Assembly (NCBI GenBank): GCA_016191085.1
Contig: JACPPJ010000054.1
Span: 24,646-88,645, forward strand
Source of the DNA: Acidobacteriota bacterium
GTDB taxonomy: Bacteria; Acidobacteriota; Terriglobia; 2-12-FULL-54-10
DNA length: 64,000 nt
Direction: 5' to 3'
Shown: positions 11,199-26,269 of the stretch, piece by piece
Numbering within the stretch: position 1 is the stretch's first letter
Layout of the letters: the number at the start of each line of letters is the position of its first letter
Notes under the pieces: generated by a model
Databases searched by the model: none
What the model saw: only the letters and a program-made list of their open reading frames with translations
What the model was told of the DNA's origin: nothing
Translations under genes and position numbers: made by a program

Positions 11199-12513
11199 TG
11201 TGTTGCTCCAAGCGTTGTGGGAAACCGTCACTGCAGTAGGCGCGCGCCAGCACTTCAATGGGATGAATCGGCCGGGCGCCGAGCGCCTGATTGAAATGAA
11301 TCGCCGCAAGGGGGCAGTCGCTGGCCGTGATTTCCGGCTCGCCGGCGGCCATCTCGTCAAAAGCTTTCTTGCCCGTTAGCATCGAAAGTGGGAAGAACTC
11401 TTTTTTCATTGCCCAGGTGCCGTCGTGGGCGCTGCACTGCTCTATGACACGCACAGTAGTCTTGGGGATCAACCGCATCAGGTCGCGGGAACGATAGCCG
11501 ATGTTTTGCGCCCGCAGATGGCACGGCAGATGATAATTTACCCGGCCCGGCGACGACAAGAATTCACGGTTGAACAATCCCTGCTGCTTGCGCTGGAAAA
11601 GGTATTCGCAGAGGTCCATGGTGGCAGCGCTGACCTTCCTTGCAGCCTCGGTCCCGACGATCTCGCCATATTCCTTCCGCAGCATGTAAGAGCAGGTGGG
11701 ATTGATCGCCACAACCTTCTTGCCGGAATCCACCGCTGGCAGCAGCGACTCGACGTTAGCAGACGCCAGCTTCTTTGCGAGTTCAAAATCTCCCGATTCG
11801 AGCGCGGGCATTCCGCAGCAGTTCTGCTTAGGGCATTGCAGCGCGATGCCGTTCTTGGAATACACCTCAACAGCGGCTTTGGCAACCCGGGGGCTGTTGT
11901 AGTTCGCGAAACACGTGAAGAACAGAACAGCCTGCGAGGGGTCTCCCGCGGCCGGGGGCTGCTTGCGGAACCAATCTTCAAACGATTCGCTGTGGAATTC
12001 GGGAAGCAGTTTGTCGCGATGAATGCCGAGCGTCTTTTCCAAGCCCAAGCGCAGCAGCGGCTGGCGATTGGCCCAATTCGTCAAACTTGCGGTGAGACCA
12101 CCCACGCGTCCGGCGAGTTCCGGGCGTGCCAGAATCCGCGCCCGCAGAGGAATACCACGCTGCTTGGCGCGGACCAGATTAGCGCGGATGAGCAAACGGG
12201 GAAAATCGAGTTGGAACTCGTGTCCGTCATCCGGCGTGTAGGGACATTTGACGTAGCAAATCCTGCATTGGAAGCAGGTATCCAGGATGCGGTCAGTCTC
12301 GGCTGTGGTTATGTTGCGCACTTCGCCCGAGTGCTGGTCAGCGGCGCGGAACAGTTCAGGGAACGAAGGACACAGACCAAAGCAGAGCCGGCAGCCCTGG
12401 CAGATGTCGAAGGCGCGGTCGAGTTCATGCTGCAGAGCCGCCGGATCCCAGTACTTGGGGTCGTTCGGGTTATAAGTGAGGCCGTCGCTGGGTAAATTCT
12501 TGATGCGATCCAT
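11170..12513 (-). CDS. Rubrerythrin-associated Fe-S oxidoreductase (GlpC/HdrD-like, CCG domains)
   Basis: CQGCRLCFGLCP, CFQCRICYVKCP, NCCGMP, CHLRAQ and CSAHDGTW. Confidence 0.9.
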   Translation of the reverse strand: MDRIKNLPSDGLTYNPNDPKYWDPAALQHELDRAFDICQGCRLCFGLCPSFPELFRAADQHSGEVRNITTAETDRILDTCFQCRICYVKCPYTPDDGHEFQLDFPRLLIRANLVRAKQRGIPLRARILARPELAGRVGGLTASLTNWANRQPLLRLGLEKTLGIHRDKLLPEFHSESFEDWFRKQPPAAGDPSQAVLFFTCFANYNSPRVAKAAVEVYSKNGIALQCPKQNCCGMPALESGDFELAKKLASANVESLLPAVDSGKKVVAINPTCSYMLRKEYGEIVGTEAARKVSAATMDLCEYLFQRKQQGLFNREFLSSPGRVNYHLPCHLRAQNIGYRSRDLMRLIPKTTVRVIEQCSAHDGTWAMKKEFFPLSMLTGKKAFDEMAAGEPEITASDCPLAAIHFNQALGARPIHPIEVLARAYCSDGFPQRLEQHNETSETGGD

Positions 12514-12562
12514 TTACAACCTTGCAATCCCCGCCGAAAGAACGCCGCGTGGCCGTCCGGTG

Positions 12563-12982
12563 TTACGAAATGCTGGAGAGGCCCTGAGAGAATTTGCCGG
12601 CGTGAGATTTCTCGGCCTTCGCCAGGGTCTCGAACCAGTCCGCGATTTCCGCAAAGCCTTCCTCTCTCGCTACTTTGGCCATGCCGGGATACATATCCGT
12701 ATACTCGTGCGTCTCACCCGCGACCGCGGACTTCAGATTCTCCGGCGTGTCTCCAATTGGCAGCCCGGTGGCCGGGTCGCCTACCGCTCGCAGATAATCG
12801 AGATGGCCGTGGGCGTGCCCGGTCTCGCCTTCAGCCGTATCGCGGAACAGGCCTGCTATCTCAGGATATCCCTCGATGTCGGCGCGCTTGGCGAAGTACA
12901 GATAACGGCGGTTCGCCTGCGATTCTCCAGCGAAGGCGTCTTTCAAATTCTGATGGGTCTTACTCCCGTTGAGCTGTGGCAT
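12563..12982 (-). CDS. rbr: Rubrerythrin (short, rubredoxin-less aerobic type)
   Basis: [34 protein letters not shown] and AEKSHA diiron ligands. No C-terminal CxxC. Confidence 0.93.
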
Positions 12983-13012
12983 GTGACTCCTCCTGTCAAA
13001 CTGATGATGATT

Positions 13013-13471
13013 TCATCTGGCCGGAATTGCCGGCTGATGCAATTTTTGCTTGCCCAATTGAGACGAATTGCGGGACCTGCCCTGGCAGCGAGGACAGATT
13101 CCAAAGAATTCCATGCGGTGTTCCTGGAGCTGATACCGGACCATCCCTTCGACTTTCCGGTCCAACACGCTCTGATACGGCAGAACCAAGTCTTCCAGCG
13201 ATCCGCAGCGGACACAGCAAACGTGATAGTGCCGATTCTTGCGTGTCTCGAATCGCGATGGCTTATTCCCGATCTTGCTTTCGATCAGATTGCCTTGCTT
13301 CACAAGCAACCGCAGATTGCGGTACACCGTTGCAAGACTGATCGACGGCATTCGCTTCCGCGCTTCCTCAAATATGGTCTGTGCGGTGGGATGCCCCTCA
13401 CTTTCCTTCAAGATGTCCAGTACCAGTTGCCGCTGAAGACTCGCTTTCAACGTTACGGACTTCTCAGCCAT
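13013..13471 (-). CDS. Fur-family regulator (PerR-like)
   Basis: HPTA, ISLATVYRNL, HYHVCCVRCG and GICPRC. Heads the rubrerythrin operon. Confidence 0.92.
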   Translation of the reverse strand: MAEKSVTLKASLQRQLVLDILKESEGHPTAQTIFEEARKRMPSISLATVYRNLRLLVKQGNLIESKIGNKPSRFETRKNRHYHVCCVRCGSLEDLVLPYQSVLDRKVEGMVRYQLQEHRMEFFGICPRCQGRSRNSSQLGKQKLHQPAIPAR

Positions 13472-13487
13472 CGGTCCGCCTCGCCGA

Positions 13488-13512
13488 AATAATAGTAACG
13501 ATTCCTATTATT
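13488..13512. promoter_or_regulatory. Putative Fur/PerR operator (AT-rich inverted repeat)
   Basis: AATAATAG-N9-CTATTATT with perfect 8-bp arms, 16 nt upstream of the Fur-family start codon in GC-rich DNA. Confidence 0.65.
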
Positions 13513-13531
13513 ACTAGTGGACCTGCTGTTG

Positions 13532-14320
13532 TCAAGCCAAATCGCCGTGCATGGAAACCGGCGCGTTCTCTTCGGGGGATTGCCGCATATTCATGGCCGC
13601 GTCTATCGGTGCAGAGACAATCGAATGGACCTTGTCGCGCAGGGTCTCCGCGGCCTCTTTGTCGAGAGCCATTCCACCCACGTCGATGGTGTCGTGCAGA
13701 TAGACGACTATTTTCGACGGGTACAACACTCGGCCGCCTTTGCGATGGAATTCGAAAGCGCCGACGATGCTCATCGGAACGATCGGATACTGCAACTGGC
13801 GTAGCATACGGAAGATTCCATCCTGAAACGGCCTCACGCGTCCGTCAATGGTTCGCCCCCCTTCGGCGAACACTACCAGGCTTACGCCGTCGTCCAGCGC
13901 CGCTTTAGTGCGGCGGAGCAGGTTCTTCAAATCGGCTGCGGTCCGGCGGCTCGATACTGGAACATTTCCAAACCGCTTCATCATCCAGCCGTAGACGGGT
14001 ACGCGGAAGTGATCCTCCAGCTCCCATCCCCGTACGAACTGGGGAACGCTGGAGTAGACCACAAACGGGTCGAAGATGTTTACATGATTGCTGATAAAGA
14101 TACTGGTACGTTTGCGGTCGAATCCCGGCGCGTACCGCACCTCCAGCCGCGCTCCGGCCAGCCGCAGTATGTTGCGTGCAAAGGTGCGCTGCAACACGTC
14201 GGTCTTCCGCGGATCAATGAATATAGCCAGCAACACTAGCAGAGCGCCGCCGATAAAGAAATGCACTGAGCTGATGACCCAGAGAACGAGACTCCGTATA
14301 TGTAAATAGATTTTCTTCAC
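13532..14320 (-). CDS. Lysophospholipid acyltransferase (PlsC family)
   Basis: NHVNIFD (HX4D), VFAEGGRT, FQDG and PIVPM, with an N-terminal TM segment. Confidence 0.9.
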   Translation of the reverse strand: MKKIYLHIRSLVLWVISSVHFFIGGALLVLLAIFIDPRKTDVLQRTFARNILRLAGARLEVRYAPGFDRKRTSIFISNHVNIFDPFVVYSSVPQFVRGWELEDHFRVPVYGWMMKRFGNVPVSSRRTAADLKNLLRRTKAALDDGVSLVVFAEGGRTIDGRVRPFQDGIFRMLRQLQYPIVPMSIVGAFEFHRKGGRVLYPSKIVVYLHDTIDVGGMALDKEAAETLRDKVHSIVSAPIDAAMNMRQSPEENAPVSMHGDLA

Positions 14321-15219
14321 GCGATCACATCCAGGGCGCCCGGCAGTATATCGAGGCGCTCACATTTTAAAGCCAGCACCTCGCCGTCCACCATTACGTC
14401 CACAGCGCCTTCAAGCTCAAACTCGACGCAGCGCACAGCACGCCGCGACGCAAGCGGGTGATTCACATGCGTGCCGTCGTACAGCGTATGCAAATTCCGC
14501 AGCAAGCCAATCCGCCCAATAGTTCCCCAGCGAACTAACTCGATCAGGCCATCGCCGGTCTCGGCTTTTGGCGCGATCATCATTTTGCCGCCAGTGAACT
14601 TGCTATTGTTAAAGGTCAGGAACAAGCATCTGCGCTGGTCCGGCTCGGTGTCGCCGTCGGCGCGCAGCGGAAAGGCACGGCGGCGCAACCGGGCGAGGCA
14701 GATCAGCACCGCGAGCAGATATCCGAACTCGCCGAGAGACTTGCACCTGCGGTTCGTAAGCGAGGCGACGTCAGCGGTGAAACCCATGCTCAGCAGATTG
14801 ATGTAATGGATCACGCCTTGCTTGTGCGTCATGCGCAGAACGTCACAAGCACGCCGGTGGCCAGCCAGGATTGCTTCAATGGAGTAATCCGGCCCGCGGT
14901 CGGTAAAGTCCCGCAGAAAGGAGTTGCCCGTTCCCAAAGGCAGAAACCCCAGTGCGGGCCTGCCGTTCGTCTGGGCTTGAGGAAACAAGCCATTCACAAT
15001 CTCGTACGAAGTGCCGTCGCCGCCGACCGCCAGAAACTGGCGGCAACCCTGTTGGTAAGCGTGCCGCGCCAGTTCCGTTCCATGGCCTGCGTGCCGCGTC
15101 TCAACCGCATCCACTTTGATGCCGTGCGAACGCAGATTCTCAAGGACGGCACTGGCAAGCTTGCCACACTTGCCGCCACCGGCGGCCGGGTTGATTACTG
15201 CGAGATAACGATCGTTCAC
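14317..15219 (-). CDS. Diacylglycerol/lipid kinase family (YegS/DgkB/sphingosine kinase-like)
   Basis: [26 protein letters not shown] and VDGE. GTG start at 15219 overlaps the upstream stop (GTGA). Confidence 0.9.
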
Positions 15220-16937
15220 AGCTCCATTACCGCTGTCGCACGTTCCAGTTTTTTCCCAATCTCCTCGGCCAGGATCACCCGTTTGACCTTCATGGACGCG
15301 GTGCGAGGGAAATCGTGATCCCAAATGACATAACTGCTGACGCGCTTGAAATCCGGCAAACGCCTGTTCCGCGCTGCCAGATCGTTCCGCAAAGCTGCAT
15401 CGAAGTTCTGTCCAGGATTCAGACGCAAGACAATGACCAGTTGCTCGGCGACGATCGTGCGGGAGCTTCGCTGCGGCCACAGATAGTTGGCGGCAAATAC
15501 GCAAAACTCCTTCACCGGCAGCCCCTCGAACGCCGACTCGATGTCTTCGGGATAGATGTTCTTGCCGCCTTCGGTGACGATCATGTTCTTCTTGCGGCCA
15601 AAGAGATGCAGATGCCCGGTCGAATCTATGCGGCCCAGATCGCCGGTCATCAGCCAGCCGTCCACGATCGTCTCGGCGGTGAGTTCCGGATCGCCCAGGT
15701 AGTGCGACATGACCGTAGGACCGCGCACTGCGACTTCGCCGATGCCCTCGGGGTCGGGATTCCGGATCTCAACTTCGGTTCCGGGCAACGGCTTCCCGAC
15801 TGTATCGGGCCGAAACGGGTGCAAGTCGTTCAGTGTAACGGCGGTGCCGGCCTCGGTGAGTCCGTAGCCGTTTGCCACAGGGATGCCGAGGTCATAGAAG
15901 AACTGCAAGGTGGCGGGTTCAGTGAATGCGCCTCCGACAAAAAAGCCCCTCAGTTCTCCGCCAAACGGCGCGTGCACTTTGTTAAGGAGCAATCGGCTCA
16001 ACCGCACGTTCGGCCGTTTGCGCGTCAGCAGCCGGTTCACAGCGATGAGTAGATCAAGCATGTTTTTCCGTCGCGGAGGCAATTCCGCGAATCGCGCGCG
16101 AAGCCCGGTCTCCAGATTCTTCAACACCAGCGGGACGAGGCTCATGTACGTAATCCGGTATTTGACGAATGCCTCGCGAATAAACTCCGGGCGCAGCGTA
16201 CGAAGGTGTACTACGGTCGCGCCGCAGAGAAACGGCCCTATGAACCCCACCATGAAATCAATGGCGTGATTGGTGGGAAGGATACTCAAATAGCGCACTC
16301 CGGGCCAAAAGGGAAATAGCGCCATCAGAGCTTTACACTGCTCCAGGTAATTTCGATGTGTCAGTACGCAGCCCTTGGGGCGCCCGCCGGTTCCGGAGGA
16401 GTACACAATGCAGGCGGCGTCCTCCCTCTGCCGCGCTACGAACGCAGGCTCGCCCGCCGCTTTGGCCTCTTCCCATCGACACGCCCCCGCCAGGTCCGCT
16501 TCTGCCGGCGCTTCGGTGACCAGCACGGTCGATACGGTCATATCTTTGAATGCCGGCATCTTGGTGATGGCACGCCAGAGGTGGTACTCCACAATCAGAA
16601 GGCGTGCGCGGCAGTGGGCGAGTAGCTGGAGGTGCTCGGTGGCGGTGAGCTTAAAATCCAGCGGAACCAGCACTCCGCCTGAATAGAAAACAGCGTATGC
16701 GGAGACCAGCCATTTCGACTGATTGCTCATAATGATGGCGGCGCGATCGCCAGCCGAGAAACTCTCCTGCTGAATGGCGCACGCGAGCGCCAGCGCGGCG
16801 GTGCTGAATTGCTGGTACGTCATCTGGCAATTCTCGCGGTCGCGATCTGCTTCGATCAGGCAGATTTCATCGGGCCAGCGTGCCAGCGCATCACGAAGCG
16901 CCGCGCCGAGTGATGGATCTTGGTTCAAGTCGAGCAT
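15216..16937 (-). CDS. AMP-binding long-chain acyl-CoA/acyl-ACP ligase
   Basis: [29 protein letters not shown] and KVKR. Confidence 0.92.
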
Positions 16938-16942
16938 TGACT

Positions 16943-17050
16943 AGCCACAGAGGCACAGAGCACCAGGGCGTCGGGTGCTAGGTGTTCGGTATCCGGTTGT
17001 TATGTCAATACGCCTATACTTCATACCTAACTTCCGACTTCTAGCTTCTG
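16943..17050. repeat. Intergenic repeat patch: AGCCACAGAGGCACAGAG element plus degenerate heptamer runs
   Basis: 16943-16960 is an exact 18-nt reverse complement of 39972-39989. It is followed by GGTGCTA/GGTGTTC/GGTATCC and CTTC-based 7-mers. Confidence 0.6.
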
Positions 17051-17052
17051 CT

Positions 17053-17295
17053 TCAAAGCCGTGCCTGGATGCGCTCGGCGAGACCGCGGAAGCTGGTGAC
17101 ACCCTGGAATTCGTAATCCGGCAACTCCACTGTGAAGTGGTTCTCAAGTCGCGTCAGCAGCTCTAGCGCCTGCAGGCTGTTGATGTTCAGCTTCTGGAAG
17201 AAGTCATCATCGGCGGCTAGTTGCTCACGGGGCACGTTGAACGAGTTCGCGGCGAGTTTGAGGATTTCATCTATGGTTTGGTCTAATGTAGGCAT
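17053..17295 (-). CDS. Acyl carrier protein
   Basis: 80 aa, acidic. DDDFFQKLNINSLQALELL..LENHF, with the Ppant Ser in NSL. Confidence 0.88.
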   Translation of the reverse strand: MPTLDQTIDEILKLAANSFNVPREQLAADDDFFQKLNINSLQALELLTRLENHFTVELPDYEFQGVTSFRGLAERIQARL

Positions 17296-17313
17296 GTTCT
17301 CGGGCGACGAACA

Positions 17314-18117
17314 TTATGGAAGATACGGTAGCGCCTCAGTGCTCTCCACGAATTTGCGCAGGCCTGCCTCTACCGCCGGTTGAGTAAACAACTCGCAAAA
17401 TATCTCGATCTCCTGCCGCAGTTCCTGCTCTGGAATTGGTTTCAGAAATTTCTTTGCCGCCGCCCTGGTGTTCGGATCAAATTTCTTGATCTGCTCAGCA
17501 GTGCTCCGCGCTAGGCGTAGAGCTTCGCCTTCGGCAGCGACTTGGCTGACGAGCCCAACAGCTTGAGCTTTAGTAGCATTCAGACTGCGGCCAGTGAAGA
17601 GCAGGTCTCTGACGACAGCGTTGCCTAGATCACGTTTGAGCCTGGGGATACCCCCGAATCCTGGAATCAACCCCAAACGCAGTTCAGGGAAACAGAACCG
17701 AGCCATTCGATCGGCCACGATTAAATCACAGACCAGCGCCAGTTCGAGTCCGCCTCCGAAACACACACCATCGACGGCAGCAATGGTGACGAGGGGCGAA
17801 GCGTCGATGGTGTTGAACACTGCATGAATGCGTGTGATGAAGTCCCGGACTCCCGCAATCTTCTCCTGGCGTGGCAAGCCCTGCGTAAGCCGATACGTCT
17901 CGCGCAAGTCAGCGCCGGCGCAGAATCCGGAAGCCAGCGTGCTGTAGATGACTGCGACACTTGCATCGGACTGCGCTTCCTTCAGTGCCTCCGCAAAAAC
18001 TTCGAGTTCCTGGAGCGTTTCCAAGCCAATCTCGTTACACGGCTCGCGGTGCAGCGCCAGCTCCAGCACGCCGCTTTCAATTTTCCAGGAAAGGGTTTTG
18101 CCTTGGAAGTTTCTCAT
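17314..18117 (-). CDS. Enoyl-CoA hydratase/isomerase (crotonase family)
   Basis: FCAGADL, GGGLELALVCD and FPELRLGLIPGFGG; both catalytic Glu positions are present. Confidence 0.92.
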   Translation of the reverse strand: MRNFQGKTLSWKIESGVLELALHREPCNEIGLETLQELEVFAEALKEAQSDASVAVIYSTLASGFCAGADLRETYRLTQGLPRQEKIAGVRDFITRIHAVFNTIDASPLVTIAAVDGVCFGGGLELALVCDLIVADRMARFCFPELRLGLIPGFGGIPRLKRDLGNAVVRDLLFTGRSLNATKAQAVGLVSQVAAEGEALRLARSTAEQIKKFDPNTRAAAKKFLKPIPEQELRQEIEIFCELFTQPAVEAGLRKFVESTEALPYLP

Positions 18118-18124
18118 GGTCTAC

Positions 18125-19816
18125 TTAGGCTGGCTTTACCGCACTCGCTCTCCCGCCAACGCCCGGATCGCGGCTCTCAGCGGATTGGTACATCTGCTCG
18201 ATTTCGCTCGCCAGCCATTCTGTAATCACATCGCGCTTCAGCTTGCCATTGGCCGTAAGCATTCCATCGCCTACTGTGAAGGGCTCTTTGTGAAGGTGGA
18301 AGGCGCGAATGCGGCGGTAGTGCGGCAACTGCGAATTGATCTCTTCGATTACGGCGTGCACATCACAATTAATGTCACCAGTCAGCACCACGCTAAGGAA
18401 TGGGCGCGCGTTTCCGACGACGAATGCGTGCTGCGCACCAGGGATTTTTCTCGCCAGCAGCTCCTCGATCGGTTCAGGTGCGACGTTGTGCCCGGAGGCA
18501 AGCACGATCAGGTTCTTGATGCGTCCCGTAATGCGCCACTTCCCCGTCCTATTTACCTCGCCCTGATCACCGGTATGAAACCAGCTGTCGCGCAACGCGT
18601 CCTGTGTTGCTTGCGGGCGATTCCAATACCCGGCAAATATGTTTGGACCGCGCACCAGTATTTCATCGTTTGCCCCGAGCTTCATCTCAATCCCGTCAAT
18701 CGCCGGCCCGACCCGACCCGGCTCGGCGTCATGGGGATCGTCCATGGTGCAGATGGCTGTCGTCTCAGTAAGCCCATACACCTGAAGAACGGGAATGCCC
18801 AACATGAAGAAGAAAAGCTGCGTCTCAACTGAGAGCGGCGCCGAGCCGCAGATGAGCGCCTTGAGGTTTGGTGCAATCTTTCTGCGAATGGCCGCAAAGA
18901 ACAGAGCCGAGGCGAGCCCCAACCAAATGGAATCAGTCAGGCCGCTATGTCCGTCACGCTGCCGCAGCCATGCCTCTCGTCCGCGTTGAAAGATTGTCTG
19001 GCGGATGCCGCCCCATTTGTTGAACTGATTTTCAACAGAGGCGCGCACCCGTTCAAGCAGCGCAGGAACATTCATGAAGTAGTCGGGCGCGGCAAGCTTC
19101 ATTTCATCCCCAAGCTTCGTCAGATCCGTGGAGATGGTGACGATACTGTCACGCGACAGGAACGTCAACAGCCCTATAGTCGAAGCTGCAAAACAAAATG
19201 GCAGATAATGAAATACCCGCTCCGTTGCTCCATGTTCCGTCAAAAGGTCAAGTCGTGCCGCGGTTGCTCCCAAGATGAAATTGAAATTGCCCGCGGTGAG
19301 CATCACGCCTTTGGGTTCGCCCGAAGTTCCGGACGTATAGATGATTGCTATTGTCTGCTCATCGCTCAGCGGAAGGGGCGGCGGGAATTCAGTCTCGCCG
19401 TTCGCTATGTCGCGGAAAATCTCATCAAACAAGAAGCTCGCTGAAGCCTCGGGCCAGCTACTGTTGAGAGTCTCCCGCAGCGTCTGGTCACCGCAACAGA
19501 TCAATGATGCGGAAGAGTCCTTCAACATGCGAACGAGTTCCTGCATCGCCTGACGCGAATAGAGCGGCACTACGATCCCGCCCTCCGCCATGATTGCCAG
19601 TTCCATTGCGGCCCATCGGATGCTGTTGGCAGCGAGAATCGCGCAGCGCTCGCCTTTCTGAACTCCGCGCTCGCGCAAGAACCCGCGCGCAGCCGTGACG
19701 AGTGCCAGAAACTCGCCGCCGGTAACGGCCGTCAATTGTCCGTCTCTCGCCTCCCGGAGAACGGGCGATCGAGAGGCGGCGCGCAAGCGGGTAAAAATTG
19801 TCTCTAAGAAATTCAT
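18125..19816 (-). CDS. AMP-dependent long-chain fatty acid-CoA ligase (FadD15-like)
   Basis: YTSGTSGEPKG, YGLTE, HTGD, GRIKNLIV and LTANGKLKR. Confidence 0.92.
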   Translation of the reverse strand: MNFLETIFTRLRAASRSPVLREARDGQLTAVTGGEFLALVTAARGFLRERGVQKGERCAILAANSIRWAAMELAIMAEGGIVVPLYSRQAMQELVRMLKDSSASLICCGDQTLRETLNSSWPEASASFLFDEIFRDIANGETEFPPPLPLSDEQTIAIIYTSGTSGEPKGVMLTAGNFNFILGATAARLDLLTEHGATERVFHYLPFCFAASTIGLLTFLSRDSIVTISTDLTKLGDEMKLAAPDYFMNVPALLERVRASVENQFNKWGGIRQTIFQRGREAWLRQRDGHSGLTDSIWLGLASALFFAAIRRKIAPNLKALICGSAPLSVETQLFFFMLGIPVLQVYGLTETTAICTMDDPHDAEPGRVGPAIDGIEMKLGANDEILVRGPNIFAGYWNRPQATQDALRDSWFHTGDQGEVNRTGKWRITGRIKNLIVLASGHNVAPEPIEELLARKIPGAQHAFVVGNARPFLSVVLTGDINCDVHAVIEEINSQLPHYRRIRAFHLHKEPFTVGDGMLTANGKLKRDVITEWLASEIEQMYQSAESRDPGVGGRASAVKPA

Positions 19817-19833
19817 ATCGTCAGGGGCGCCGT

Positions 19834-21288
19834 CTAGGAGCCCGGCTGCCGGACAGGCTGAGTTTCCGCCTGTGATGAAGAATCATATTCCTCAATCAGC
19901 TTCCAAAGGCCCGGACTGAGCGCAGGCAGATAATCCAACCATGAAAGCACGCCATCTCGTACCGGGAACTCGGGATATCGTCGTTGAACTTGATCCTCAA
20001 AATACCGACCCATCCGCGCCATCATCTTGAGGTTCTGAACTACGGTGCGTCCGATGGCATCCACTACTTCTTCGCGATGCTTCCAGAGGTATTGCAGCAC
20101 ATTGAGAAGTTTCGGTTGCAGATCAGGGTCGTCCGCTTCCAGAACCAGATGTGGCTGCCCCCGCTCGCGCATGAGGTTGCGAATGCGCTCGTCCATCGTA
20201 ACCCCCGCCGAGGCTACCAGGCCCGGCATGGATGTGACAATGCCGTGGTACCGGGACGAGATCATGAGATGGCTGAAGCGCAGGATGCTCACGAGCTGGT
20301 ACATATCATACTTGTCTGAGGAGAAAACCGGCAGGCCGCCTAGCTTGGCAGAAAGAGCTTGGCAGGGCGCGGTATCCAATCTCTCCATAGCGACCAGGAT
20401 CGGGAATACGTCATGTTCTCTACGAAACGAGTCTACTGCGGTTGCGAATGCGATTATATACCGCTTGTACTGCGCCTCCGCTTTTGGCCCGGAGTTATGG
20501 AAATAGATCGAGCGGTAGTGGCTCTCGCGGAATGCTCCCGTCAAGCCGTACGCAAGCCCTTTGGTCAACGAAGCTCTCACGGGCCAACAAAATGGATTGA
20601 TCGGACAGATAACCAGTACCGGTTGCCTGCCATCCCATCCCACGTCTGCCAGTGTTTTCGTCCCATATTCCAGCCCGTGTGGCTCAAACGTCCAAGCCGT
20701 GTCGGTACCGAGTTCAGCAGGAACGCCCAAATCACGCAGCACTGTTCGAGACTCCTCATTACGCGTGATGACGAAAGAGTCGCGGCAATACCGTGCGCAC
20801 ATGGCGCTAAGAAATCCGTCCATGTGCCCGGCCTCGGCACCGTATCCAACTGACACCTTGTTCTGAGCAGAGGCTATTCCAAGCGAGCCGATCATCATCG
20901 CCGTGAGCGCGTTTGCGAATTTGCTCTTGAACATCGAGCCTTCGCAGGCCACCACCCCGTGATGCTTCTTCACTTCGCTATACAGAAAGGGCGGGAAAAT
21001 ATCCGGCAACTTGACCTGGGTTGCGTCGCCGAAGTAGCCCCTCGAATAATCGAAATTCTGAGTCATCACGCTCAGGTGCACGTTTTTGGCTCCCAGTACG
21101 CGGCGCACCTGGCGCAGCATCTCTTCCACGCGGACATCCGAGCCCGTATTGCGAGTTCCGTTGTAACCGGCAAAGAGCAGCTTGAGTTTCGTGCCCGGCG
21201 TCCAGGGTTGCCCCCCGCCCAGCATCCACTCAAGCCGCGACAGCTCGATGAGGATGCTGACCCACATTTCCAGCACCTCATCCATCAT
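19834..21288 (-). CDS. Polysaccharide pyruvyltransferase-family (GT-B fold) protein
   Basis: [11 protein letters not shown] (GxxGxxNxGD-like), ITRNEES, DTAW and SSRYHG. ATG 21288 overlaps the upstream TGA. Confidence 0.72.
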
Positions 21289-22418
21289 CCAACAGACCCT
21301 CCAGCCGCTTCGGGCCACGCTTGGTAGGGATAGGTGAAGTGTTGCTCCTTGCTGAATTTCAACAGGGCGTAGCTGTAGTCCGAAAACGGCGCGGGAACAC
21401 GTCGCAGCTCGGACACCACTCGCGTATTGTCGAACACGGTATTCCAGACCAGGTATGGAATGAAAACTTTCAGAAGCGACGCGACGTGTCCAACGGCGCC
21501 TCGTGTATTTGCAAGGCTGTTTGCAAGGGCCGTGAATGGTGCTTCCGCCGATGGCAGGTAGATACGCTTGGGTTTTCGCTGGATGGCGGCAAGATTGTCT
21601 GTCAGCTCCTGAAAGGTTTGCGACCGTGTGCCGGAAGATAGGTGGTAAATGTCGTGTTGCGGCTCCTCTTTCTCATGGAGCGTGACAACCGCATCAGCGA
21701 CGAAGTCCACAGGGACGATGTCGATTCGGTCGGTAGGCCGGAACGGTAGCACCGGTAATGCTGCGAGAAATACGAACGCGCGCACCATGTCGAATTGAGT
21801 CGTCTCGCCGCGCTGGCTGTCGCCCAGCACGATGCTAGGCCGGAAAATGGTTCTCGGCACGTCGGCGAGTAACTCGCGAATCATGTGCTCGCAGAACTTC
21901 TTCGTCCGGGCGTAAGGATCGTAATCGGAACGGTTCCAGTCGATCGCCTGATCTTCCTGTACTACCTCGTTCTTCCGATGTCCTGCCACCGCGACAGTGC
22001 TCACGTGACTAAAGCGCCGCAAGCCGTGATGATCCCTGGCGCGCGAGGCTAACTGGACGACTTCTAACGTGCCGCGCAAGTTCACATTCAGGCAACTCTT
22101 TTCCGACTTGCGGTTCAGAGATGCGGCGCAGTGGATGACAGAATCGGTCGAGCTTACCAGACGCGAATAATCCGCGTCTTCCAAACCAAAACGTGAGCTG
22201 GTCAGGTCTCCGAGGAAAAGCGAGATTTGTGTTTTCAGATAATGGTGAAATCTCGGGAAGTCCAGATGCAACTGCAGCGCGCGCCAGAGGCGCTCCTGCG
22301 CTTCCCGGAGAGTCTTGGCGCGAATCAGGAGGTTCAGCGTTCCGGTGTAATTCTCCAGGAGGCGTGCAGCAAGGTGGGCACCGATGTACCCGGTGGAACC
22401 GGTCAGGAACGTGGCCAT
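21285..22418 (-). CDS. Extended SDR / thioester-reductase-like (NAD_binding_4) oxidoreductase
   Basis: [24 protein letters not shown] and FRPSIVLG. Start ATG 22418. Confidence 0.88.
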
Positions 22419-24778
22419 GTCGCTAGGGGTCTCTCCTGGCCCCGCTTGCCGTTGTCGGCGCGATCGGGGACGCTCATCACCTGCAAACGAAACGGTCTGG
22501 GCGGCCGTTCCGGCAGCGGACGGCCTTCGATCAAAGGGTACGACCATTTGCGCTGTGCGGGGATATGGATGTTGATCCAATATTCCCACCAGTCAATCGC
22601 GCATGGATTGTAAGAAAAGGCTGTTCTTTCCTCAGGCACCAAGGCCGCTGAGAGCAGTTTCACATTCTCAGTTTCAAATACCTGCTCATTCAGAAGAATG
22701 AATGGCTCGTAAAGCTCGATCAGTTTTTCCACGCGAATCAGGCTGCGTTCGGCGCGTTCGAGTGGCGGGCGGATCATCGGCAACGGGCCCGCGGTCTTTT
22801 TCAGCGCGCGCACGATCGCCTTTTGTACGGGCGCAGACAGCTTCTTGTAACGAGCCTTGGAGACAGGTATGGTTTCAAACCGCAATCGTAGCCAGCGGTC
22901 CAGGCCGCCGCGCGCGCGAAAGTATTTCCGATGCGCCAGGCAAGTCAACTCAATGGAGCGCCGCATATCGCATGGATTGTCGGCGGACGTCGCCAGTTGA
23001 TACAGCTTTTCATGACAGCGTTGGACGAGCGCGGTGGCGATCAGCGTCATGCCGCGGCAAACCATATCGACGGGGATGATGTCCAGGCATTTGCGCTCGT
23101 TCGTGGGAAGCTGGCGAAAGTAGGTCCCCAGCAGATAGGAGAGCGGCGCGGAGGTGTTGATGCCCTCATTCCAACCTTCGAACGGTTGGTGAGTCGAACT
23201 TTCGACGATGGAAGGCCGCACGATCGCGATCGGCAGATCGCCGCCCAATGTCTGTATGAGCGATTCTGCAAGGCTCTTCGTAAAGGTATAAGTGTTGGGC
23301 CAGCCGAGCTCTTGTGCGCGCCGTGTTCCGGCTTTGGTCAGATGTTTCCTGAGCCACCGGATACGGTGCTTGCGAATCTGGTTCTCCAGCGTCGCCCCTG
23401 AAAGCTTCTCGCCGCCTGAGCCTTTCTTCGTTACCAGCCGCCGTAATTCCTCCGCTACAGCGGGAGTAGTGGATTTGACTTCAATCTCCTCGACCGTTTG
23501 GCGCAAGCGGCGCCACTCCGCTTCCGCACTGTAGTTTTTCTCGCCAATAGGAGTGTAGTTTGGCTGGAGATCTTCGGTGATGCGTCCGTCGCGACTGCCC
23601 ACCACAAAGCACGTGGAGAGATGCATCAGCGCGGCGCGTTCGCTCTGCCGGATGAATTCGACGAGATGGACAGCTCCGTCGACATTTGTCGCCAACGCGT
23701 CGCGGAGGTCGGGGTTAAAATCCACCAGGCCTGCGCTGTTCACCACCACATCGAGCGACCGGCCCAGGTGCTGACGGCTCTCCGCGTCCATTCCCAACCC
23801 CGGTTGCGACACGTCACCCTCAATTACTTCTATCCTTTCACTAAGGAAGCGCGGTAAATCCTCCCCGTACCGCTGATGAAGAGCGTCAAAGATGGGCGAC
23901 TCTTGCACAATTTTTTCAAAGCGCCGGAGAGCACTGAGCGGTCCTTGGCGTCGAACGAGGAGATAGACTTTTCCGATCTCCGGTACGTCGGTCAGCAGAT
24001 GAATCAACCAAACTTTTCCTATAAATCCAGTGACGCCGATCAGCAGGATGTTCTTGCCCGCCAGCGATTCTCGCACCGAGAGTCGTTCGACTTTGCGCTT
24101 TGAATCCCATTGCAGCACCGGTCTGGCGATATTGGCCTTCGGCCGGCGTGCAGGCATGATCGCACCGTTTACAACGTCGGGCGACATATCCGTTCCGATG
24201 TCCCTGGCGAACTGCTCGCGCGAGATTCTGCCGTCGCTGCCGCTGCGCCGCACACCTGCAAAGATGCCGCGAGGACGAATGACGGGGTCGAGTAGACGCC
24301 CGGTAGCCAGTCCGTCTCGAAATTCCAGCCGGTTCGCCATCAGCTTGTCTACGCCGAGATGCGCGGCCAGCGGCCTCATTACGTGAGCCAGCCCTTGGCT
24401 AACCAACACAACATTCGGATCAGCGGCCATATACTCCCGAAGCTTTTCCATGCCGCCAGGTTTTAACCGCGGTTTCAGTACATAGTGAAAATATTCTTCG
24501 CCCAGGAGATCTAGCCGGTCATGGCTGACGCCGCGCAGCAATACGTGCAGGACACGGGTAGCAAACACGCGGTTGCAGGCATAAAGAAAAGGTCGGAAGA
24601 GCGCTAACAATCCCACGCCGCCGCGCCTCATCCAGCGTTCAAAAAAACTTTGTGCATTCCAAGTGAAAAACGCGACAGGCCGTACGGCGCTGAGGTTCAA
24701 CAGACTGCCCTCGACGCGCCAGAAGGTAGCGGAAGCGTGCACAGAATCTGAGGCTTGCTCGCCAAACGATCTTGCCAT
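22403..24778 (-). CDS. HAD-like domain fused to alcohol-forming fatty acyl-CoA reductase (male-sterility/FAR type)
   Basis: N-terminal HAD-IB-like fold ([26 protein letters not shown]). C-terminal FAR motifs [36 protein letters not shown] and DIIPVD. Confidence 0.85.
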
Positions 24779-24913
24779 GTATGCAACTCGGAGCCGCGCT
24801 CATCGCGCTGACGCATTCGGTCCTAAGCCGAACGTAGAATTTTATGCGAGCGGTAAACCCAATTCAACACTCCCCGCCGCCGTAGGTTGGCGCAAGCGCC
24901 GCGAACAGGTAAG

Positions 24914-26164
24914 TTATTGATTCCAGTTTCGGGCAAAATCGCTGATGCGGCCGATCGCCTTGCGGAGAGTCTCCTCCGGCGGGAGGAATACCATTCTGAA
25001 ATGTTTGGTTCCTGGCTGCTGTCCGAAACCGGAGCCGGGCACCACGATCACGCCGGTTTGCCGGATCAGATCGGCAACGAACTCCTGGTCGGTGCGTGAA
25101 ATTTCAAGTCGCGGAAACGCGTAGAATGCCGCCTGCGGAGTGAAACAACTCACGTTCGGGATGGAGGTCAGCAGCGACATGGCAAGATCGCGCCGCTTCT
25201 TGAGCTTTTCGACCATAAGCGCAATGTGGCTCTGATCGCCTTCGAGTGCCGGCCTCACCGCGAATTGCGATGGCTGGTTGGAACACAGCCGGACTCGCAA
25301 CATTTTCGCAATCGCTTCGCGATACGCGGCGACTTCCTGCTCATGTCCGGACAGAATTCCCCAGCCCGTTCGAAAACCCGGGACCAGGTAGGCCTTGGAC
25401 AGTCCATTAAAAGTCACAACCGGCTGATCGGGGGCCAAAGATGCCAGCGGCACATATTCGCTCTCGTCGAACAGAAGTTTGTCGTAGATTTCATCGGAGA
25501 CGGCAACCAGACCGTGCCTGGCCGCAAGATTCAGAATCTCTTTCAATAACTCTTTCCGGCAGATCGCGCCGGTTGGGTTATTGGGGTTCATCACAACAAT
25601 TCCGCGAGTCCGGCTGTTAACGAGCTTCGCCATCTCCCCCACGTCGGGCTGCCAAGCGTTTGCTTCGTCCAGGTGGTAGTAAACCGGCATGCAGCCAAGC
25701 TTAGCGAGAGTGGCTTCGTACAGGGGGTATCCCGGCGCGGGAATCAGCATATTATCGCCGGGATCGAGCAGAGCAGCCATTGAGACTTCAATTCCCTCGC
25801 TAACGCCGGACGTGACAAAAATCTCCTGAATATTCCGCACGCCGCGGCTGTTCGCTTCGCGGCGGATGGCCTCGACTGCTTCCTCAACACCGAGAGACGG
25901 CGCGTAGCCGTTGTGCCCCGCGAGCATAGCCCGGTAAGTGGCCTCGATGATGTGCCGCGGCGTTTGAAAATCGTAGAGTATCGGATCGCCGATATTTAGG
26001 CGCACAAGCTCTTTGCCCGCTGCTTTGGCCTGTTCAGCGAGCAGCATGATATCCCGAATCGCGTACCGGATTCGGGTGGATCTCTCGGATGGTTTCAGCT
26101 CGATTGACGAGACACTTGACGCGCCATGTCGTCCGGCAACCTGTATTGGAGCTTGTTCGTTCAT
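24914..26164 (-). CDS. Class I/II PLP-dependent aminotransferase (AlaA/alanine-type); start uncertain (open to 26245)
   Basis: LNIGDP, GVSEGI, NPNNPTG, DEIYD and GLSKAYLVPGFRTGW (PLP Lys). Confidence 0.9.
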   Translation of the reverse strand: MNEQAPIQVAGRHGASSVSSIELKPSERSTRIRYAIRDIMLLAEQAKAAGKELVRLNIGDPILYDFQTPRHIIEATYRAMLAGHNGYAPSLGVEEAVEAIRREANSRGVRNIQEIFVTSGVSEGIEVSMAALLDPGDNMLIPAPGYPLYEATLAKLGCMPVYYHLDEANAWQPDVGEMAKLVNSRTRGIVVMNPNNPTGAICRKELLKEILNLAARHGLVAVSDEIYDKLLFDESEYVPLASLAPDQPVVTFNGLSKAYLVPGFRTGWGILSGHEQEVAAYREAIAKMLRVRLCSNQPSQFAVRPALEGDQSHIALMVEKLKKRRDLAMSLLTSIPNVSCFTPQAAFYAFPRLEISRTDQEFVADLIRQTGVIVVPGSGFGQQPGTKHFRMVFLPPEETLRKAIGRISDFARNWNQ

Positions 26165-26269
26165 CACCATCAATAATGCACCGAAACCCGGCTTCTGTAA
26201 AAGAATATCGGAGAACGCAATGTGTAACTGGGGAGCATCCATCACGCTGGCAGCGGAACGCGAAAAGAT

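Follow-up and report, generated by a model that had tools for sequence, protein, structure and literature searches.

The AGPS route of animals and myxobacteria employs FAR1, GNPAT and AGPS and is completed by acylation. In Myxococcus xanthus the elb operon (ElbA-E), in which ElbD carries FAR, ACS, ACP and AT domains, is reported to be required for alkyl ether lipids, with the ACS and ACP domains of ElbD loading fatty acids in vitro (PMC9131029). A preprint describes elb-like cluster families in sponge-symbiont Acidobacteriota and Poribacteria, where DAG kinases and G3P acyltransferases adjoin some of the clusters (10.64898/2026.06.23.733905). Bacteria are also reported to contain 2-O-monoalkyl glycerol ethers that carry an sn-1 acyl chain (PMC5552659). 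The products of the characterised PF04230 pyruvyl transferases, as one source describes them, are cyclic ketals on sugar diols and not enol ethers on mono-alcohols (PMC10435577).

The window, by which we mean the whole 64,000-nt stretch of DNA analysed, holds at positions 13532-24778 nine co-directional ORFs on the minus strand, with domain content taken from Pfam and NCBIfam. The first-pass annotation had described nine co-directional genes with several stop/start overlaps, and this is what is found: from HADFAR to PLSC the junctions measure -16, -4, +17, +7, +18, +115, -4 and -4 nt, with overlaps at four of the eight. The HADFAR stop is overlapped by 16 nt by the RED2 start, RED2 and PSPT meet in an ATGA overlap, and GTGA overlaps join LIG2 to KIN, which starts with GTG, and KIN to PLSC. 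Three starts were shifted from the longest ORF to internal codons (RED2 ATG at 22418, PSPT ATG at 21288 and KIN GTG at 15219) on the basis of agreement with domain starts and orthologue alignments. A sigma-70-like site on the same strand (24839..24867; 9/12 matches), which precedes the HADFAR start by 61 nt, is a possible operon promoter but a candidate only, since the region contains 6 such sites against 5.4 expected after shuffling.

A lack of conserved synteny had been named earlier as grounds for rejecting the cluster; the genes are colinear at all 73 evaluable loci of three collections (11/11, 46/46 genome loci and 16/16 metagenome loci), and an arrangement that other genomes repeat in this way is far beyond chance. 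The carriers, hundreds of bacteria of which the order was counted at these 73 loci, are mostly uncultured and come from soil and groundwater; the closest homologues belong to MAGs named Acidobacteria, Terriglobia and Terriglobales, in keeping with an acidobacterial source for the window, and every top match is a MAG. The complete nine-gene set is present at 10/11, 30/46 and 9/16 evaluable loci of the three collections. Four of the 16 evaluable metagenome loci have all genes except LIG1, and 13 of the 46 evaluable genome loci have the other eight genes with no PLSC match found within the locus DNA; thus LIG1 and PLSC are not obligatory in cis. Two loci (L026 and L030) hold the first four genes only, and three (L123, L148 and L153) have PSPT homologues without partners within the locus DNA covered. 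A RED2 match adjoins the upstream side of PSPT in nearly all loci that extend that far, and the evaluable loci in which PSPT keeps its position between RED2 and LIG1/ECH span several phyla. Neighbours beyond the cassette differ between loci, with TetR-type regulators flanking it in five metagenome loci. The tight or overlapping junctions, conserved order and variable flanks suggest that the nine genes form a single conserved operon, or cassette.

The domains listed in the first-pass annotation agree with the Pfam and NCBIfam content, with two amendments: its 'extended SDR' is sharpened to a thioester-reductase-like enzyme, and the HAD domain proves degenerate. HADFAR (22403..24778) joins a degenerate HAD-IB-like N-terminal domain (PF12710, E 5e-12; about residues 17-170) to an alcohol-forming-type fatty acyl reductase, composed of NAD_binding_4 (E 7e-57; residues 247-576) and a Sterile-like domain (residues 678-744) that scores 33.6 bits, slightly below the 35.4 cut-off. 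Its closest solved chain is a fatty acyl-CoA reductase (7eoz, E 1.4e-45), and an alignment of 81 orthologues shows conservation of Y497-x3-K501 and of the Rossmann motif. In the HAD part motif I reads F-W-R-V-E-G and not DxDG, with Arg21, at least 90% conserved in the orthologue alignment, in place of the nucleophile Asp, and motif IV is lost, so that this domain is no phosphatase; with the nucleophile lost in every PSPT-type cluster examined, it is, as judged from its motifs, a pseudo-phosphatase in every cassette member examined.

RED2 (21285..22418; 377 aa) is a stand-alone thioester-reductase-type NAD(P)H enzyme (NAD_binding_4, E 1.3e-48; TIGR01746, E 2e-41) with Y169-x3-K173 conserved across 89 orthologues, and among solved chains the terminal reductase domain of MxaA, which converts a carrier-bound thioester to an alcohol, comes closest (4u7w, E 4.8e-24). 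LIG1 (18125..19816; 563 aa) is a FadD11/ACSL-like AMP-ligase (AMP-binding, E 1e-53, plus AMP-binding_C_3). In ECH (17314..18117; 267 aa), a crotonase-fold hydratase (ECH_1, E 8e-43), E125 and E145, which we take to be the two hydratase-motif Glu residues, show at least 98% conservation across 71 orthologues; among the matches listed every solved relative is a hydratase or a dehydratase, one of them being 3-hydroxypropionyl-CoA dehydratase 5zai (acrylyl-CoA/3-hydroxypropionyl-CoA). The dedicated ACP (17053..17295; 80 aa; PP-binding, E 1e-11) has its Ser40 attachment site conserved in 65 orthologues, and LIG2 (15216..16937; 573 aa; AMP-binding, E 4e-70) is an ElbD/Aas-type, acyl-ACP-synthetase-like AMP-ligase. 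KIN (14317..15219; 300 aa), a soluble DgkB/YegS-type lipid kinase (DAGK_cat and YegS_C), reaches 123.5 bits against the TIGR00147 cut-off of 118.65 when scored on the 395-aa ORF, has DgkB (2qv7, E 2e-19) as its closest solved chain, and conserves GGDGT in the orthologue alignment. Finally, PLSC (13532..14320; 262 aa) is a membrane-anchored PlsC-family acyltransferase (PF01553 Acyltransferase, E 7e-19; H79-x4-D84 conserved in 41 orthologues), a separate paralogue from a better-scoring PF01553 gene on contig C46. From their conserved catalytic motifs FAR, RED2, ECH, ACP, KIN and PLSC all look active.

How far, then, is the cassette an Elb system? Sequences were compared with the fused FAR-ACS-ACP-AT (ElbD-architecture) proteins in the sample, and the M. 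xanthus operon was compared by its description. The FAR domain is 29-34% identical to fused ElbD-architecture FAR domains (E 1e-53 to 1e-88), and a tree with the second reductase as its root places it among them. LIG2, 28-33% identical to ElbD-like and Aas-like ACS domains (E 1e-56 to 1e-80), falls in one group with ElbD-type and Aas-type synthetases (99 SH-aLRT); nothing else in the sample is as closely related to the ElbD-type domains as FAR and LIG2. The grouping of FAR and ligase domains with ElbD that had been proposed as a test is thus obtained for FAR and LIG2 but not for LIG1, which shares a different clade with a ligase fused to PSPT in P0174. Some fused ElbD loci are adjoined by a kinase homologue or by an intact HAD gene, and one (L115) has an AGPS-like gene about 1 kb from the fused ElbD. 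Beside seven fused ElbD loci no counterpart of RED2, PSPT or ECH was found, and in a phylum sample of 301 genomes the 12 that are PSPT-positive all lack a fused ElbD frame. The earlier picture of a split, expanded Elb pathway is borne out in part: its FAR and LIG2 relationships stand, but on these comparisons the cassette is not merely ElbD in pieces but a separate, widely distributed one. Its HAD parallel likewise survives as to the presence of a HAD-family part, without the nucleophile Asp that the ElbD-linked HADs keep.

One of the main questions concerning such a cassette is what makes the ether bond. It had been noted earlier that no KS or AGPS gene is present, and indeed the domain search found no KS gene within the cluster, and a search of the genome (88% complete) for an AGPS orthologue found none, its best match covering part of the FAD domain at 28% identity. 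The bond-forming step was left unassigned on that occasion, which it need not be, since PSPT (19834..21288; 484 aa) is a plausible PEP-dependent candidate. PS_pyruv_trans (PF04230) is recognised at 29.4 bits, barely over the 25.3 cut-off, and TIGR03609 at E 1.7e-14, below the model cut-off. The AlphaFold2 model (pLDDT 94.2) has a two-domain GT-B fold, and Pvg1p (5ax7) is not among its best 50 Foldseek matches. A motif S345-R346-x-H348 is present, and R176, R346, H348 and R368 (20 residues after the His) align with CsaB R148, R306, H308 and K328; PEP binding by the aligned CsaB/Pvg1p residues is reported from mutagenesis or docking (PMC10435577). The family is discrete, its proteins measuring about 470 aa and carrying an insert of 45 aa that is missing in two canonical members. 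Its members are fused to FAR (1014 aa, Pseudobacteriovorax MAG), to a LIG1-type ligase (967 aa; the P0174 protein) and to FAAL-ACP (1348 aa), from which it follows that PSPT partners lipid and not glycan enzymes.

The reading that we prefer, tentatively and at somewhat under an even chance, is that the operon makes a glycerophospholipid precursor from a fatty alcohol, most probably with an ether linkage, by way of a PEP-derived ether, each step being drawn from family chemistry, gene order and fusions. HADFAR would reduce a fatty acyl thioester, the acyl-CoA coming from LIG1 or a housekeeping ligase, to a fatty alcohol, onto which PSPT would place the enolpyruvyl group of PEP, forming the C-O-C ether bond of a 2-alkoxyacrylate. 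A ligase would turn this product into a thioester, and LIG1 is the candidate because a LIG1-type ligase is fused to PSPT elsewhere. ECH would then add water at C3 and RED2 would reduce the thioester carbon to an alcohol, such that the three PEP carbons become the glycerol of a 2-O-alkylglycerol. KIN would phosphorylate a primary hydroxyl. LIG2 would charge the ACP encoded in the cluster, and PLSC would use this acyl-ACP to acylate the remaining hydroxyl, giving a 1-acyl-2-O-alkyl-glycerol phosphate, a phosphatidate analogue to which head groups could be added in the normal way. For the degenerate HAD, binding of a phospho-acid or a scaffold function is possible.

Consistent with this PEP-ether pathway, PSPT keeps the PEP-binding residues of CsaB/Pvg1p, has a GT-B fold and is fused to lipid enzymes elsewhere, the nearest solved relatives of RED2, ECH and KIN (MxaA reductase, hydratases and DgkB) suggest the chemistry required, LIG2 groups with ElbD/Aas-type synthetases, which feed acyltransferases, the genome yielded no AGPS orthologue, and the product would resemble the bacterial 2-O-monoalkyl ethers with an sn-1 acyl chain (PMC5552659). 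Against it, characterised PF04230 enzymes form ketals on sugar diols, PSPT has its marginal Pfam score and no 5ax7 among its best 50 Foldseek matches, LIG1 and PLSC are dispensable in cis, and four-gene loci and solitary PSPT homologues exist. It is speculative that ECH would take an acrylyl substrate bearing an alkoxy group, since the normal substrates of crotonases are ordinary enoyl chains as CoA esters. The ether lipids of cultured Acidobacteria in the literature searched are 1-O-alkyl types, and the steps leave the role of the pseudo-HAD unexplained. The literature searched yielded no description of this cluster type, and if the proposal is true, a previously undescribed route leads from fatty alcohols to an unusual, probably ether-linked, membrane lipid.

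Could the cassette instead work much as Elb does, with LIG2 and ACP loading a fatty acid for reduction by FAR, another activity linking the alcohol by an ether to a backbone from DHAP or G3P, KIN and PLSC finishing an alkyl-acyl phosphatidate, and PSPT, ECH, RED2 and LIG1 decorating the lipid (e.g. by head-group pyruvylation) or tailoring the chain? The affinities of FAR and LIG2, the kinase or HAD genes beside some fused ElbD genes, the reported in vitro loading (PMC9131029) and the kinases and acyltransferases beside sponge-symbiont clusters (10.64898/2026.06.23.733905) speak for this, yet we regard it as unlikely: the cassette HAD lacks the nucleophile that ElbD-linked HADs keep, neither AGPS nor another ether-forming candidate was found in the genome, and there are no head-group genes in the cassette. 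Moreover RED2, PSPT and ECH are conserved as strictly as FAR, which together with the fusions of PSPT to FAR or ligases speaks for a core part and not a decorative one. That PSPT pyruvylates polysaccharides in the ordinary way and stands beside lipid genes by coincidence is hardly credible in spite of the WcaK-like polysaccharide pyruvyl transferase names of its homologues in databases, given its constant slot at 73/73 evaluable loci in several phyla, its fusions, its distinct insert-bearing family, and the finding of no glycan genes in the cassette neighbourhoods examined.

A further alternative would keep PSPT within PF04230 ketal chemistry (PMC10435577): ECH would hydrate a 2-enoyl thioester, FAR would make an alkane-1,3-diol from the 3-hydroxyacyl chain, PSPT would close a six-membered pyruvate ketal, a ring as on a sugar 4,6-diol, LIG1 and RED2 would process the ketal carboxylate, and KIN would phosphorylate the resulting alcohol. 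ECH does resemble an ordinary enoyl-CoA hydratase, and acylation is not needed, which fits the 13/46 loci without a PLSC match; but the cassette has no enzyme to make the enoyl substrate, and PLSC, LIG2 and ACP, present in most loci, would have no role. A ketal-diol lipid was not found in the literature searched and none is known to us, and we consider this account improbable. Slighter still is the likelihood that no new bond type is involved and that the cluster yields fatty alcohols or storage lipids of the wax type, or else salvages fatty acids and alkyl- or acylglycerols of external origin through its ligases, kinase and acyltransferase. Storage and salvage pathways do employ enzymes of all these kinds (FAR, ligases, lipid kinase and acyltransferase), and TetR-type regulators, which flank some cassettes, are common at fatty-acid-responsive operons; the domain search, however, found no wax synthase/DGAT-type gene in the cassette, and this account does not explain why PSPT, RED2 and ECH are so strictly conserved or why PSPT occurs in fusions.

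Among known systems the cassette shares with M. xanthus elb a FAR, an acyl-activating enzyme, an ACP, a PlsC-type acyltransferase and a HAD-family part, but its modules, unlike those of ElbD, are on separate genes, its HAD has Arg for the nucleophilic Asp, and it adds four conserved genes, RED2, PSPT, LIG1 and ECH. The sponge-symbiont families are likewise acidobacterial, some with elbD split in two and some with DAG kinase and G3P acyltransferase neighbours, and what defines them, unlike the cassette, is an adenylation-domain-bearing ElbD homologue; the main text of the preprint does not contain 'pyruvyl', 'crotonase' or 'enoyl-CoA' (10.64898/2026.06.23.733905), though these families may overlap with the cassette. 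LIG2, ACP and PLSC resemble a split Aas or ACS-ACP-AT protein, although here they are separate genes inside a larger reductive cassette. Like CsaB of Paenibacillus alvei and Pvg1p of S. pombe, PSPT has the PEP-binding Arg, the Arg-x-His and a basic residue 20 later within a two-domain GT-B-like fold; it reaches only 53.9 bits with the CsaB model, far below the 213 cut-off, and whereas the acceptors of CsaB and Pvg1p are sugars in glycan pathways, PSPT is encoded among lipid genes, has FAR or ligases as fusion partners in other lineages and bears the 45-aa insert. The proposed pathway would, like the AGPS route, start with a FAR-made fatty alcohol and end in an alkyl-acyl glycerophosphate, but with a backbone from PEP rather than DHAP and the ether at position 2.

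The cassette comprises nine co-directional open reading frames at 13532-24778 (minus strand), and gene calls combined with Pfam and NCBIfam searches bear out both this arrangement and the domain types proposed in the first-pass annotation. In operon order, HADFAR (791 aa) joins a degenerate HAD domain (PF12710) to the NAD_binding_4 and Sterile-like C-terminal domains of a fatty acyl reductase (FAR) and is followed by RED2 (377 aa, ATG at 22418), a thioester-reductase-like NAD_binding_4 protein, and by PSPT (484 aa, ATG at 21288), a pyruvyl-transferase-like protein whose match to PS_pyruv_trans (PF04230) is weak but above threshold. Next come LIG1, a FadD11-like ligase with AMP-binding and AMP-binding_C_3 domains, the crotonase ECH, an acyl carrier protein (ACP), a second AMP-binding ligase (LIG2), KIN (300 aa, GTG at 15219), which has DAGK_cat and YegS_C domains, and the PF01553 acyltransferase PLSC. 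The successive junctions measure -16, -4, +17, +7, +18, +115, -4 and -4 nt.

The residues associated with catalysis are largely retained. HADFAR fits the alcohol-forming FAR family, with both domains, a Rossmann motif and YxxxK present; NAD_binding_4 scores 193 bits and Sterile 33.6 bits, 1.8 below the Pfam cut-off, and the protein matches the solved fatty acyl reductase 7eoz with an E value of 1.4e-45. The Y497-K501 pair of the FAR is kept among orthologues, as are Y169-K173 of RED2, whose nearest solved relative is the MxaA reductase domain, and S40 of the ACP. ECH has the features of a crotonase-fold hydratase: E125 and E145, which we take to belong to the catalytic motifs of such enzymes, are at least 98% conserved across 71 orthologues, and its nearest solved relatives are hydratases and dehydratases, 3-hydroxypropionyl-CoA dehydratase included. 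KIN carries the features of YegS/DgkB kinases, with a conserved GGDGT at residues 66-70, a TIGR00147 score of 123.5 bits against a cut-off of 118.65 and DgkB 2qv7 as nearest solved relative (E 2e-19). PLSC is of the PlsC type, with an HX4D motif (H79-x4-D84) conserved in 41 orthologues; a second, better-scoring PlsC lies separately on another contig of the same genome.

The flanking genes lie outside the nine-gene unit. Upstream, between 24914 and 28000 (minus strand), one gene resembles alanine aminotransferases, with a below-cut-off match to NF006230 (E 1e-120), and another encodes a dCache-HAMP-HD-GYP sensor. The Aminotran_1_2 gene prompted a sphingolipid-type reading, in which an alpha-oxoamine synthase would act with the ACP, a ligase and the kinase; this was rejected, as the gene is alanine-aminotransferase-like and is matched in only 3 of 92 genome loci (L011, L019 and L024, the last two with HD-GYP as well). 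Genes upstream of the HAD are unrelated between loci. Directly downstream of PLSC, a 152-aa ORF (13013-13471, minus) looks by eye like a Fur/PerR-type regulator, and the best sigma-70-like site of the region (11/12, at 13535-13507) lies immediately before this ORF, overlapping the stop codon of PLSC. An antisense 338-aa ORF (12476-13492, plus) has no Pfam match and is probably spurious. Within 12900-26400, neither promoter-like sites (6 vs 5.4) nor terminator-like sites (18 vs 13.6) are more frequent than in shuffled sequence. Further on, at 10626-12513 (minus), a CCG/4Fe-4S protein of 447 aa is followed by a DUF3501 protein, a pair that resembles the iron-sulfur subunits of heterodisulfide reductase or glycolate oxidase.

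The distribution of the cassette is most easily followed through PSPT. Close homologues number in the thousands, with at least 7743 at E <=0.001 among 8000 scored candidates; the best 120 are 68-100% identical, and those with names come from MAGs of Acidobacteria, Terriglobia and Terriglobales. Against 1.84 billion representatives clustered at 50% identity there are 801 matches at E 0.001 and 229 at 1e-30, and so few matching representatives indicate a discrete family, the full-length members of which are about 470-510 aa long. Among 40 relatives of the window's genome, PSPT occurs in 17 and is all-or-none by genus; by family it is found in 10/13, 4/4, 2/2 and 1/3 genomes of four families (f1, f3, f7 and f9) and in none of seven others, and many members of the window's own family carry the cassette (10 of 13 genomes). 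In a sample spread evenly over the phylum, 12 of 301 genomes have PSPT, the window's own among them. For the cassette, scans gave at least 582 stretches in species-representative genomes (599 pattern matches, of which 582 were relatives) and at least 540 in metagenomes (600 pattern matches, of which 540 were relatives). Other PSPT homologues carry names from Planctomycetota, Myxococcota, Gammaproteobacteria and Bdellovibrionota, among them those of the cultured Schlesneria paludicola (Planctomycetota; WP_010586167.1), a Polyangiales MAG and the likewise cultured Endozoicomonas atrinae (WP_066017872.1), and a 509-aa Atlas cluster with PSPT homologues is commonest in Myxococcota.

Is the gene order conserved along with PSPT? 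From the scans of genome contigs, made with a profile of a 9-sequence alignment, and of metagenomes, the best 80 relatives of each were retained, and a locus counted as evaluable if, measured from the PSPT start, it reached at least 3.8 kb upstream and at least 9 kb downstream. Ten of the 11 evaluable loci from relatives' genomes have all nine genes, the other (L017) having no PLSC match. All nine are found in 30 of 46 evaluable genome contigs, with 13 more missing only PLSC, two (L026 and L030) holding just the first four genes and one (L096) being without LIG2, KIN and PLSC. The 16 evaluable metagenome contigs divide into nine complete, four with eight genes that have no LIG1, and three incomplete. 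Across these three collections the genes present are colinear in 73/73 evaluable loci, in the order HAD/FAR, RED2, PSPT, (LIG1), ECH, ACP, LIG2, KIN, PLSC, and the synteny proposed as a check on the first-pass annotation is thus conserved. At L123, L148 and L153 the PSPT homologues have no partners within the sequence around them. Local BLAST comparisons suggest that in the more distant metagenome variants, which are about 50% identical, the HAD is a gene of its own, about 220 aa long. Of the loci checked, five variants of non-acidobacterial type (L125, L131, L139, L149 and L187) have a TetR-family regulator (207-222 aa) after the cassette, and in L139 a cNMP-binding/DUF1003 protein lies between KIN and PLSC; the downstream end of the window's cassette has no TetR-type regulator.

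PSPT is the only PF04230 gene in the window's genome (88% complete), where it scores 29.4 bits against a curated cut-off of 25.3, as compared with 58.4 and 48.8 bits for the collection proteins P0174 and P0129; it falls below the cut-off of the NCBIfam equivalog model for CsaB. Within the family (28 sequences) R53, R176, D196, D305, H348 and D366 are invariant and S345, R346 and R368 nearly so. In an alignment that adds two canonical PF04230 proteins, taken from relatives and scoring 100-102 bits, R176, D196 and S345-R346-x-H348 are invariant, and R368 occupies the position of a Lys found in both canonical proteins exactly 20 residues past the His. In CsaB, according to the available text of PMC10435577, mutagenesis identified R148, H308 and K328 as critical for PEP binding and docking added R306, their counterparts in Pvg1p being R217, H339, K361 and R337, respectively. 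The R-x-H-(19)-K spacing of CsaB is the same in PSPT, with Arg at the Lys position, the mapping of residues between the two proteins being derived from this spacing and from that text. Because the PEP-binding residues and their spacing are matched, PSPT is predicted from its sequence to be PEP-dependent. At 228-275 PSPT carries an aromatic-rich insert, some 45 residues long, that is absent from the two canonical proteins. The AlphaFold2 model of PSPT (pLDDT 94.2, pTM 0.92) has a GT-B fold, and its best Foldseek matches are UDP-GlcNAc 2-epimerases and UGT glycosyltransferases; searches of PDB sequences gave one match at E 0.046 with the single sequence and chance matches only (E >=0.11) with a profile.

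What places such an enzyme in lipid chemistry is a set of three gene fusions, namely a 1014-aa FAR (NAD_binding_4 plus Sterile) joined to PSPT and named from a Pseudobacteriovorax MAG, the 967-aa P0174 in which PSPT is joined to a LIG1-type ligase, and the 1348-aa P0401, which consists of a FAAL-type ligase, an ACP and a PSPT part 53% identical to that of the window. There are no glycan genes in or beside the cassette, so that PSPT stands outside the glycan-pathway context of canonical PF04230 proteins. The adenylation domain of P0401 is interrupted at 376-469 by a PilZ domain, a c-di-GMP-binding module, which is a hint that in some lineage this lipid chemistry is under second-messenger control. 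Four further proteins of 1012-1024 aa (P0325, P0357, P0361 and P0376, with Microbacteriaceae or Microbacterium names on P0325 and P0361) are fusions of an AMP-ligase with an enolpyruvyl transferase of the EPSP-synthase type (PF00275), and thereby pair another PEP-dependent enolpyruvyl transferase with an acid-activating enzyme.

What, then, might the cassette make? The pairing of a DgkB-type kinase with a subsequent PlsC-type acyltransferase implies that some lipid alcohol is turned into a phosphatidate analogue, and the upstream activities, as read from the protein families, would be a fatty-alcohol maker, a PEP-dependent O-transferase, an acid activator, a hydratase for an alpha,beta-unsaturated thioester and a thioester reductase. 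These may be arranged as a PEP route, in which a fatty alcohol and PEP would give a 2-alkoxyacrylate, an enolpyruvyl ether representing the first half of the ketal mechanism. This ether would be converted to a thioester, water would add onto C3 to yield a 2-O-alkyl-glyceroyl thioester, and reduction would generate 2-O-alkylglycerol, to be phosphorylated and then acylated with acyl-ACP from LIG2 and ACP. The predicted product class is therefore a 2-O-alkyl, 1-acyl glycerolipid, and lipids of this kind are known in bacteria, as described in the text of PMC5552659. In its full form the proposal is that both the ether bond and the glycerol backbone would come from PEP by way of a pyruvyl-transferase-like enzyme, independently of AGPS, ElbD and Ger/PlsA, and that this could be the missing ether-lipid route of uncultured Acidobacteriota and members of several other phyla; we hold this to be possible, though on the doubtful side.

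Three other explanations have to be set beside the PEP route. The first-pass annotation had likened the cassette to a split and expanded version of the elb ether-lipid pathway of Myxococcus xanthus, and an Elb-like route might operate here with PSPT as a modifier. The likeness stands in part, in that the FAR and LIG2 are 28-34% identical to proteins with the FAR-ACS-ACP-AT architecture of ElbD, but a single ElbD polypeptide is absent and the HAD has no catalytic Asp. The cassette might instead make a pyruvate-ketal diol lipid. A salvage or storage cluster is the other reading. Weak points of the PEP route are that no PF04230 enzyme is known to stop at the enol ether, that LIG1 and PLSC are not always in cis and that the scheme gives the pseudo-HAD no role. 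We infer the PEP route to be the likeliest of these readings; it is the sole scheme found that gives each conserved catalytic gene a chemically ordinary role.

The first-pass annotation had also remarked on the absence of AGPS, and this extends to the window's genome (88% complete), where a search with the AGPS-like protein of locus L115 gave no orthologue, the best match being 28% identical over residues 132-357 (E 1e-19). The query itself, an FAD-linked oxidase of 586 aa (FAD_binding_4 plus FAD-oxidase_C; L115 13399-15159, plus strand), is encoded in another acidobacterial genome, where a fused ElbD-like gene lies about 1 kb upstream of it, and since the two are near each other, the two known aerobic ether routes can be neighbours. 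The HGD-D (2-hydroxyacyl-CoA dehydratase-like) family is also found in the Ger/PlsA ether-forming enzymes. The window's genome has four HGD-D frames of 414-450 aa in adjacent pairs (G000 C61:5140-7501 and C80:9463-11804), and no fused activase plus HGD-D form was seen among these frames.

The formation of ether bonds in aerobic Acidobacteria is an open problem, and brGDGT palaeoclimate proxies rest on acidobacterial ether lipids. According to the text available from PMC13159169 and PMC10087280, (i) Ger is carried by ether-producing strains of other phyla and not by most Acidobacteria, and (ii) acidobacterial elb clusters have been reported for subdivision 4 only. In the literature text searched, neither an ether-lipid cluster with a pyruvyl-transferase-like gene nor a cassette combining pseudo-HAD, FAR, RED2, PSPT, ECH, ACP, ligase, kinase and acyltransferase is described, though figures or supplements could already show one. 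The chemistry would be categorically new if the PEP route is true, and the 11-kb cassette together with the single-enzyme reaction of PSPT with PEP and a fatty alcohol makes this bond-forming chemistry testable. Were PEP to supply the backbone, the lipids would be set apart from those derived from G3P or DHAP by the position of the ether and by the stereochemistry and isotopic composition of the glycerol, which would bear on the 'lipid divide' debate and the reading of biomarkers.

Sinninghe Damste and colleagues are said to have reported acidobacterial elb homologues and a split variant in 2018 in Org. Geochem. In the frames examined here, fused ElbD-type proteins of 1440-1583 aa occur, among the matches listed, in about 40 genomes of other acidobacterial classes, and in the window's genome no ElbD-type frame of at least 1400 aa was seen (best match E 3e-79). 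Among the matches listed for the 301-genome sample (378 unlisted), fused frames occur in 0 of 12 PSPT-positive genomes; since about 1.6 overlaps are expected by chance, this is no evidence of exclusion. In seven fused ElbD loci there is no homologue of PSPT or ECH and RED2 matches only ElbD's own FAR domain; in L121 the epimerase-family ORF close to the fused ElbD drew no BLAST match from RED2 at E up to 1e-5. A kinase homologue (31% identical) adjoins ElbD in 2/7 of these loci, intact HAD genes lie near it in 2/7 and the AGPS-like oxidase in 1/7.

For the sequence comparison, ElbD-architecture proteins (P0273, P0275 and P0276) and fused frames of other Acidobacteriota stood in for ElbD. Against these, identity is 29-34% for the FAR part of HADFAR (E 1e-53 to 1e-88) and 28-32% for LIG2 (E 1e-61 to 1e-80), with LIG1 matching more poorly (E 1e-37 to 1e-48) and PLSC weakly (E 1e-6 to 1e-15). 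Quick maximum-likelihood trees, with SH-aLRT support only, group 15 cassette FARs together (93), one FAR-PSPT fusion included; their nearest neighbour is a single fused ElbD-like FAR (96*), the other nine ElbD-like FARs branch next, and RED2 falls outside on a long branch. As the trees were built without other FAR families and without M. xanthus ElbD, 'closest to ElbD' is valid only within this sample. A group supported at 99* unites LIG2 (100*) with ElbD-type, ACS-ACP-AT and Aas-like synthetases, and LIG1 falls in a distinct 100* clade together with the PSPT-fused ligase of P0174.

HAD phosphatases of the usual kind need a nucleophilic Asp. Motif I of the cassette HADs reads F-x-R-[VL]-E-G in 8/8 aligned sequences (the window and seven metagenome cassettes, leaving out the row L133_fused_N, a mis-called frame), and across 81 orthologues of HADFAR the conservation of Arg21 is 90% or more. 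The two ElbD-linked HADs, with F-F-D-V-D-G and F-Y-D-L-E-G, keep the first Asp, whereas the cassette HAD has Arg there and, as judged from knowledge of the family, cannot be a usual HAD phosphatase because the nucleophile is gone. The elb operon itself, as described in the text of PMC9131029, consists of elbA and elbE of the NAD-epimerase family, the HAD gene elbB, elbC of unknown function and elbD, and how a fatty acid becomes an alkyl ether is stated there to be unknown. The parts of the cassette are members of known families, kin to those of Elb within the sample compared; in Elb, however, FAR, ACS, ACP and AT reside on one ElbD polypeptide, whereas in the cassette the four modules are carried by four genes.
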